A stretch of DNA of 64,000 nt from Escherichia phage P1, in the sequence record MH445380.1. One strand, given 5' to 3'. Under the pieces are notes generated by a model. That model saw nothing but the letters and a program-made list of their open reading frames with translations, was not told the DNA's origin and made no database searches. The translations under genes and the position numbers were made by a program. The first letter of the stretch is position 1. Each line of letters begins with the position of its first letter. Of this stretch, positions 47,580 through 47,645 are shown piece by piece.

Positions 47580-47596
47580 ATTGCTCTAATAATTCC
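47580..47596 (+). promoter_or_regulatory. C1 operator-like site (left member of an inverted pair)
   Basis: ATTGCTCTAATAATTCC, 14/17. Confidence 0.45.
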
Positions 47597-47604
47597 ATAT
47601 TTTT

Positions 47605-47632
47605 AAAACGTGATGTACACTCATCACGTTTT
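47605..47632. terminator. Bidirectional rho-independent terminator
   Basis: Perfect 11-bp stem AAAACGTGATG / CATCACGTTTT with a 6-nt loop, flanked by A- and T-runs. Confidence 0.55.
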
Positions 47633-47645
47633 TTATTAGAGCAAT
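47629..47645 (-). promoter_or_regulatory. C1 operator-like site (right member, inverted)
   Basis: Reverse complement ATTGCTCTAATAAAAAA, 14/17. Confidence 0.45.

Follow-up and report, generated by a model that had tools for sequence, protein, structure and literature searches.

The window analysed here is a 64,000-nucleotide stretch of Escherichia phage P1 (sequence record MH445380.1), in which a 66-bp element (47580-47645) is located between the genes pmgQ and pmgR (Table 1). A 3.8-kb query around this site showed 100% identity to the Punavirus P1 record MH422554 and 98.4% identity to the reference P1 genome AF234172, with AF234172 and the window sharing 161 of 161 bases across 47540-47700. 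The c1 gene lies just outside the window; in the 100%-identical record MH422554 it is found at 93289-94140. Upstream of the element, pmgQ ends with a TAA stop codon (47576-47578) two bases before the operator Op86a. Downstream, pmgR and pmgS form a unit closed by a strong terminator-like hairpin situated 22 nt past the pmgS stop codon. A Pfam search of PmgQ, PmgR and PmgS returned nothing above cut-off.

Table 1. Features in and around the element between pmgQ and pmgR (d, terminator score).
Feature	Position in window	Strand	Position in AF234172	Remarks
pmgQ	46877..47578	+	81449-82150	last gene of the pmgN-pmgO-pmgP-ppp-pmgQ unit
Op86a (OpmgRa), ATTGCTCTAATAATTCC	47580..47596	+	82152-82168	identical to AF234172, where it is annotated as a monovalent C1-controlled operator (former Op86a) controlling pmgR and pmgS; 14/17 to consensus ATTGCTCTAATAAATTT
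PpmgR		+	82153-82181	annotated as a predicted sigma-70 promoter
PpmgR -35, TTGCTC	47581..47586	+	82153-82158	predicted; inside Op86a
PpmgR -10, TAAAAC	47604..47609	+	82176-82181	predicted; 17-nt spacer; overlaps hairpin 5' arm
Hairpin	47605..47632	+		5' arm 47605-47615, 6-nt loop 47616-47621, 3' arm 47622-47632; 11/11 paired
T-run, TTTTTTATT	47629..47637	+		putative U-tract after hairpin core; starts with bases that also end Op86b
Op86b (OpmgRb), ATTGCTCTAATAAAAAA	47629..47645	-	82201-82217	identical to AF234172, where it is annotated as a monovalent C1-controlled operator (former Op86b); 14/17 to consensus
Shine-Dalgarno-like AAGGTG	47650..47655	+		4 nt before pmgR ATG; read from the sequence
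pmgR (shtA in P7)	47660..47878	+		72 aa; first controlled gene
pmgS (shtB in P7)	47880..49142	+		420 aa; second controlled gene
Strong terminator-like hairpin, TGCTGGTGG...CCACCAGCA and T7	49164..49188	+		d = +31.8; -15.6 kcal/mol
Strong terminator	49791-49771	-		d = +34; between the site and the nearest leftward genes

By its sequence, the element is the known Op86a/Op86b (OpmgRa/OpmgRb)-PpmgR control region of P1-type phages. It reads, in order, ATTGCTCTAATAA TTCCATATTTTT AAAACGTGATG TACACT CATCACGTTTT TTATTAGAGCAAT. The first-pass annotation had described a pair of operator-like 17-mers in inverted orientation, and these are present: their outer 13-mers (47580-47592, ATTGCTCTAATAA, and 47633-47645, TTATTAGAGCAAT) are complementary at 13 of 13 positions. 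In P1, C1 operators are dispersed over 22 sites and follow an asymmetric 17-bp consensus, ATTGCTCTAATAAATTT; Lxc is the corepressor of C1 and Coi the antirepressor (PMC8546580). Both Op86a and Op86b match this consensus perfectly at positions 1-13, although only 14/17 overall. The 13-mer ATTGCTCTAATAA occurs five times exactly in the window and 13 times at two or fewer mismatches, where 2.1 occurrences were expected (none of 100 shuffles reached 13). Using a matrix built on the remaining 13 operators that AF234172 annotates between 50 and 94.8 kb, Op86a scored 22.7 bits (rank 6) and Op86b 20.5 bits (rank 8) among approximately 128,000 positions on both strands; the higher and neighbouring ranks are all recognisable operators, and the best non-operator site scored 11.9 bits. 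These ranks, together with the annotations of AF234172 and of phage P7, support the earlier operator reading of both 17-mers, which are putative binding sites of the C1 repressor.

The operators and their target genes pmgR-pmgS are already known, having been in public annotation since 2004. The annotation of OpmgRa/OpmgRb and PpmgR (AF234172 / NC_005856) is reportedly tied to the P1 genome paper of Lobocka et al. (2004, J Bacteriol 186:7032). The element of the window is identical to this annotated one in sequence, position and orientation, the AF234172 record differing only in that the intervening hairpin is left unmarked. In the P7 record AF503408, the corresponding sites bear the names Op(sht[a])/Op(sht[b]), and control of the sht operon is ascribed to them; they are orthologous and have the same layout upstream of shtA/shtB (pmgR/pmgS in P1). 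P7 and P1 differ in gene names and in the function proposed, this being sheath structure/contraction for P7 and 'putative morphogenetic' for P1. The first-pass annotation had also proposed a control point for the genes at 47660-49142; this span corresponds to pmgR-pmgS, to which both operators are assigned by annotation. Text searches of the available literature turned up neither a mention of Op86 nor transcript-end, start-site or C1-binding data for the site.

Between the operators, a hairpin with an 11-bp perfect stem and flanking A/T runs, as noted in the first-pass annotation, was confirmed, with all 11 stem pairs complementary. It is flanked by TTTTT and AAAA on its 5' side and by TTTTTT on its 3' side. 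The G/C-containing core (47609-47628; CGTGATG/CATCACG) accounts for seven of the 11 pairs, four of these being G-C, with an energy of -8.5 kcal/mol; the remaining four pairs consist of an A-run against a T-run. For the full stem of P1, energies of -12.9 kcal/mol on the plus strand and -12.4 kcal/mol on the minus strand were calculated. An 86-nt stretch folds at -26.9 kcal/mol on the plus strand, compared with -8.4 ± 2.4 kcal/mol for dinucleotide shuffles (z = -7.7; 0 of 200 as good), and the minus strand of the region folds at -27.2 kcal/mol (z = -6.3). The tails of the hairpin are unequal, being T6-A-TT on the plus strand and T4 followed by A5 on the minus strand. A known RNA family was rejected as the identity of the hairpin, as the Rfam search gave a single chance microRNA match of 19.6 bits, far below the gathering score of 211.

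Relatives of the element were identified through PmgS homology rather than through a DNA motif. In Cronobacter phage JK004 and Salmonella plasmid pCFSAN058588, where PmgS is 69.8% and 69.0% identical, respectively, the 66-bp layout is kept, with the Op86a 13-mer exact and the Op86b 13-mer matching at 12 of 13 positions, despite heavily diverged flanks. An operator at the site equivalent to Op88 is also present in both. The operator is conserved as a site among these relatives. The P1-type operator is absent from the remote relatives in Pantoea, Leclercia and Vibrio (PmgS 21-25% identical). In Leclercia, a classic GC-rich terminator is located directly upstream of the pmgS homologue, and in Pantoea a different 20-nt inverted repeat occurs at the same gene boundary.

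A first scan of IMG/VR, with a pattern demanding that both operator cores be exact, yielded 126 elements comprising 28 unique variants, with the overall length of 66 bp retained in 123 of the 126 copies. As this pattern was biased by the exact cores it demanded, the scan was re-anchored on the hairpin, giving 102 complete copies. No substitutions occur in the 12-mer cores of Op86a (TTGCTCTAATAA) and Op86b in any of these (102/102), and three copies differ by a 1-nt indel within a run of A or T. Among the close P1-type copies, diversity per site is 0 in the operator cores, 0.0014 in the loop, 0.0055 to 0.010 in the stem arms, 0.016 in the 5' region of pmgR and 0.036 at the 3' end of pmgQ.

Comparison of the hairpin arms provides evidence on pairing. 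In P1 the 5' arm, loop and 3' arm are AAAACGTGATG, TACACT and CATCACGTTTT; in the Salmonella plasmid they are AAAACATGGTG, TATCAT and CACCATGTTTT, and in JK004 GAAGCATGGTG, TATCAT and CGCCATGTTTT. The Salmonella/JK004 lineage displays compensatory double changes at two stem pairs (G-C to A-T and A-T to G-C). In an alignment of 18 variants, 97.0% of cells were paired, compared with 38-72% when the partners were slid by one to three columns. The numbers of paired cells and of double-change cells and the covariation score each beat all 500 shuffles, which does not hold for the count of double-change pairs (126/500). A stem pair is broken in six singleton variants. This covariation is moderate evidence, since the double changes derive from one diverged lineage and represent few independent events.

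A G·U pair on one strand is a C·A mismatch on the other, and the strand on which the hairpin pairs can be read from such changes. JK004 possesses three additional G·U or U·G pairs that are valid in plus-strand RNA only; its hairpin is predicted at -13.5 kcal/mol as plus-strand RNA, compared with -5.8 kcal/mol as minus-strand RNA (8/11 pairs). Among P1-type copies, polymorphism at five stem sites (about 14 contigs) consists of transitions that keep pairing on the plus strand only, while three singleton sites pair on the minus strand only and three singletons break both. A palindrome acting purely at the DNA level, for example as a protein-binding site, is made less likely by the plus-strand-only pattern. 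The comparative evidence supports the hairpin as a real, selected structure.

Terminator potential was assessed with a score of the d'Aubenton-Carafa type (d), implemented here with modern energy parameters. On the plus strand, the U-rich UUUUUUAUU lies directly 3' of the stem core, and d was +10.7 in P1, +13.6 in the Salmonella type and +11.6 in JK004. On the minus strand, d was -20.7 in P1 and negative in 18 of 18 variants (-18 to -75). When both strands of the window were scanned (128 kb), 18 sites scored above zero; the hairpin ranked seventh, and the top ones are clean canonical terminators. Two other top-scoring terminators of the window each have a C1 operator at a distance of no more than about 50 bp. 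With a 7-bp core, four G-C pairs and -8.5 kcal/mol, the hairpin is predicted to be only a moderate terminator. It was not called by an automated terminator scan, probably because the stem was extended through A·U pairs, leaving too few T residues. The absence of a hairpin annotation in AF234172 is uninformative, as this record marks no terminators across 50-94.8 kb, including none for the strong hairpin after pmgS.

The distance from the pmgQ stop codon to the start of the hairpin core is 30 nt, and the unit downstream is equipped with operators and a predicted promoter of its own. The hairpin is most likely a one-way, plus-strand terminator that ends the pmgN-pmgQ unit. The earlier claim of a terminator is thus retained in part, the site being a credible intrinsic terminator rightward (d +10.7) and not leftward (d -20.7). 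Its description as bidirectional was not upheld, given the minus-strand tail of U4 followed by A5, the negative d in all 18 variants and the 8/11 pairs of the JK004 minus strand.

The predicted promoter PpmgR has its -35 hexamer within Op86a, a design also seen at P2pmgT (Op88) and P1ban (Op72a), where promoters are annotated. Its -10 hexamer, TAAAAC, is weak and unconserved: the corresponding sequence is TGAAGC in JK004 and TGAAAC in three P1-type contigs (-11 A to G), these -11 variants keeping the RNA stem as G·U. An automated promoter scan of the region did not call PpmgR. A late (Lpa-dependent) promoter was searched for with the AAGTGACTT-like -22 boxes taken from five annotated late promoters, and zero matches at one or fewer mismatches were found in 47300-47700. 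Late-promoter identity of the hairpin was rejected, as it showed only a 6/9 match with no TAnnnT following.

Taken together, the reading we favour, at a probability of roughly 0.6, is that of an Op86a/Op86b control region that encloses an unannotated one-way terminator. In the lysogen, C1 with its corepressor Lxc on Op86a would occlude PpmgR, the -35 sequence TTGCTC lying inside this operator, and pmgR-pmgS would be silent. Transcripts from the upstream C1-controlled pmgN-pmgQ unit (Op83) would stop 50-60 nt past the pmgQ stop codon with a U6 tail. Upon inactivation of C1, PpmgR would fire; with its -10 in the 5' arm of the hairpin, transcription is predicted to start in the loop, around 47616. 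The resulting RNA would lack the 5' arm and so escape the hairpin, running to the terminator at 49164-49188. Counted from the predicted start, Op86b would occupy positions of about +13 to +29; it overlaps the U-tract, and C1 bound there may act as a second lock, serving as a roadblock to both PpmgR transcripts and read-through. Such a compact terminator-operator-promoter-operator module would leave pmgR-pmgS separately repressed and insulated. The promoter, and hence the start-in-loop step, is the least secure part of this model owing to the weak -10, the -11 A of which is G in JK004 and three contigs.

A more specific version of this model is tentative, and we consider it somewhat doubtful in its entirety: that a strand-specific terminator is nested in the promoter it protects, with the 5' arm providing the -10, the start in the loop and the U-tract forming the 3' end of Op86b, the whole constituting a fixed-length, 66-bp terminator/promoter/double-operator insulator. 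Comparable arrangements may exist at further operators of P1, as suggested by the two top-scoring terminators near C1 operators mentioned above.

The main rival to the nested-promoter model is that PpmgR is not functional and that pmgR-pmgS are expressed by partial read-through of the hairpin, acting as an attenuator, from the Op83 promoter, the operators serving purely as roadblocks in the lysogen. The weak and unconserved -10, the failure of the automated scan to find a promoter at the site and the leak that is plausible at a moderate terminator are all compatible with this. It is nevertheless rather unlikely, as the -35 lies within an operator in the manner of Op88 and Op72a, with their annotated promoters, and control of pmgR/S is the role given to the operators in the P1 as well as the P7 annotation. 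In a P1 CRISPRi study, roadblocks in pmgO-pmgQ were without plating phenotype though pmgR is essential by deletion, which is weak evidence against read-through (PMC10695390). The knockdown of pmgR itself was also without phenotype in that study (PMC10695390), and the CRISPRi results therefore decide nothing between an own promoter and read-through. The RNA-seq remarks of a delta-hfq preprint are at gene level only.

The other explanations concern the hairpin and the looped or folded form of the element, and all are considerably less probable than read-through. The inner palindrome could act as DNA rather than as an RNA hairpin, in the form of a dimeric-protein site, a cruciform or an operator spacer. 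Both the P1 and the Salmonella versions are perfectly palindromic, symmetric changes could reflect co-evolution with a dimeric binding protein, and the 66-bp length is kept in almost all copies (123/126). This is nonetheless improbable: in JK004 three of the 11 positions are no longer symmetric, yet G·U pairs preserve the pairing of the plus-strand RNA, the polymorphisms lean to changes compatible with G·U on the plus strand, the T-run right after the stem is needed by a terminator and superfluous for a protein site, and there is no late-promoter -22 box. Marginally less probable again is the combination proposed in the first-pass annotation, a truly bidirectional terminator insulating both units with two C1 molecules looping across it. 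The P1 palindrome is perfect, lies between an A-run and a T-run, and folds about equally stably on both strands (-12.9 and -12.4 kcal/mol); for the P1 operators at Op99, looping mediated by C1 has been described. Against this stand the minus-strand tail, scores and pairing given above, and the absence of convergent transcription at the site, all genes from about 44.3 to 51 kb being on the plus strand and a much stronger minus-strand terminator (49791-49771) being present before the nearest leftward genes. As to looping, the gap between Op86a and Op86b is 32 bp and the distance from centre to centre is 49 bp, or about 4.7 helical turns, a spacing that is probably too short for an unassisted loop; a simple protein-bridged C1 loop lacking extra bending is thus unlikely. 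Least probable of all, we would hold, is folding of the whole 66-nt inverted repeat in read-through RNA as an RNase III site or a 3' stabiliser of pmgQ mRNA. With a predicted energy of -26.4 kcal/mol, this full structure dominates the ensemble, but the C1 operators account fully for the outer arms, whose 13-mer recurs singly elsewhere, and the invariance of the outer stem leaves no covariation test. Termination would also be expected to precede transcription of the outer 3' arm, and no Rfam family was matched.

The control region with its putative nested one-way terminator may be compared with two known kinds of element. Like the bivalent operators of P1 (Op72ab at Pban and Op99ab at Pc1), it possesses two inverted C1 17-mers at one promoter, here a predicted one. 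In those operators the 17-mers overlap (by about 6 bp, with starts 11 bp apart) to form an imperfect palindrome, whereas the hairpin and T-run separate Op86a from Op86b, and each of the two carries its own annotation as a monovalent operator. Assignment to the bivalent class was rejected, the 17-mers being 32 bp apart instead of overlapping. With canonical enterobacterial intrinsic terminators the P1 hairpin has in common a stem-loop and U-run after a stop codon and compensatory pairing; unlike them, it is short and relatively G/C-poor (four G-C pairs), situated within a predicted promoter and overlapped by a repressor site.

The only, and modest, addition made here to the annotated operators and promoter is the evidence for the unannotated hairpin as a conserved, plus-strand-specific, terminator-like structure nested in the predicted promoter. 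It has little significance outside P1 biology and neither opens nor settles a long-standing question. If true, it would give synthetic biology a compact natural insulator/repressible-promoter part and would sharpen the operon map of P1-type phage-plasmids, by which resistance genes are commonly carried in Enterobacteriaceae.

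A strong, canonical terminator-like hairpin was identified between pmgS and pap, 22 nt 3' of the pmgS stop codon. The annotation of the reference P1 genome (AF234172) carries no mark for the corresponding hairpin. The hairpin implies a position of pap behind a terminator, without an annotated promoter of its own. A second strong hairpin, on the minus strand, is located immediately downstream of operator Op88 of the C1 repressor and the predicted PpmgT promoters. As predicted from sequence, this is a further example of a putative terminator packed against a C1 operator, facing leftward transcription. 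In the scan of the window, three of the seven top-scoring terminators lie within ~50 bp of a C1 operator; the site with the highest score is separated from a C1-operator-like site by ~45 bp.

Positions in the window of terminator-like sites and associated features (score: d'Aubenton-Carafa-type terminator score)
Feature	Position	Strand	Sequence	Energy (kcal/mol)	Score	Remarks
Terminator-like site	15425-15444	- and +	CCTGCCAG..CTGGCAGG		+55 (-), +1.9 (+)	Top score of window
C1-operator-like site	15490-15506		TTTGCTCTAATAAATTT			
Short G/C-rich palindrome	39112-39126	both	GCCCGATCGCCGGGC	-8.2		T-runs on both strands
Terminator-like hairpin, pmgS-pap	49164-49188	+	TGCTGGTGG..CCACCAGCA then T7	-15.6	+31.8	Strong, canonical
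pap	49215-49721					
C1 operator Op88	49721-49737					
Terminator-like hairpin, near Op88	49771-49791	-	CATGCCGCG..CGCGGCATG then T5AT4 (on - strand)		+34	Strong
Putative variable cargo region	~49900-61400					MH422554 ~78450-89950

The hairpin between operators Op86a and Op86b, within the element at 47580-47645, had been proposed in the first-pass annotation as a bidirectional terminator. The short palindrome at 39112-39126, with terminator scores above zero in both directions (+5.1 and +6.9), is more promising than that element as a truly bidirectional terminator.

In a remote P1-like plasmid of Pantoea sp. (NZ_CP034366), the gap matching that of Op86a and Op86b, upstream of the homologues of pmgR and pmgS, holds another inverted repeat of 20 nt (ACAAAAGATACTAAAATATG and CATATTTTAGTATCTTATGT, separated by 16 nt; 2195-2250 of the locus). 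This repeat could represent two operators of a repressor with another specificity. Leclercia plasmid NZ_CP042508 encodes a distant PmgS homologue (20.6% identical; 2507-3802 of the locus) annotated as a 'DNA-directed RNA polymerase subunit alpha C-terminal domain-containing protein', a possible hint to the function of PmgS. A comparison of P1 PmgS with Pfam gave nothing above cut-off.

To the right of Op88, the distance to an Op94-type site (61413, ATTGCTCTAATGTATTG) is ~6.1 kb longer in the window than in reference P1. In the place of P1 pmgT-pmgV and the upf genes, other genes are annotated in the P1-type record MH422554, among them one for a RecT-like protein, one for an EaA protein and several for hypothetical proteins, and the region looks like a variable cargo region.

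Spacing between stop codons and operators was read from Op55, Op86a, Op88 and Op94 of AF234172 and at 47580 and 49721 of the window. For repL/Op55, pmgQ/Op86a, pap/Op88 and pdcB/Op94, the operator starts 0-4 nt past the stop codon of the gene before it. The C1-controlled units of P1 appear to form a head-to-tail chain that is almost free of spacers.
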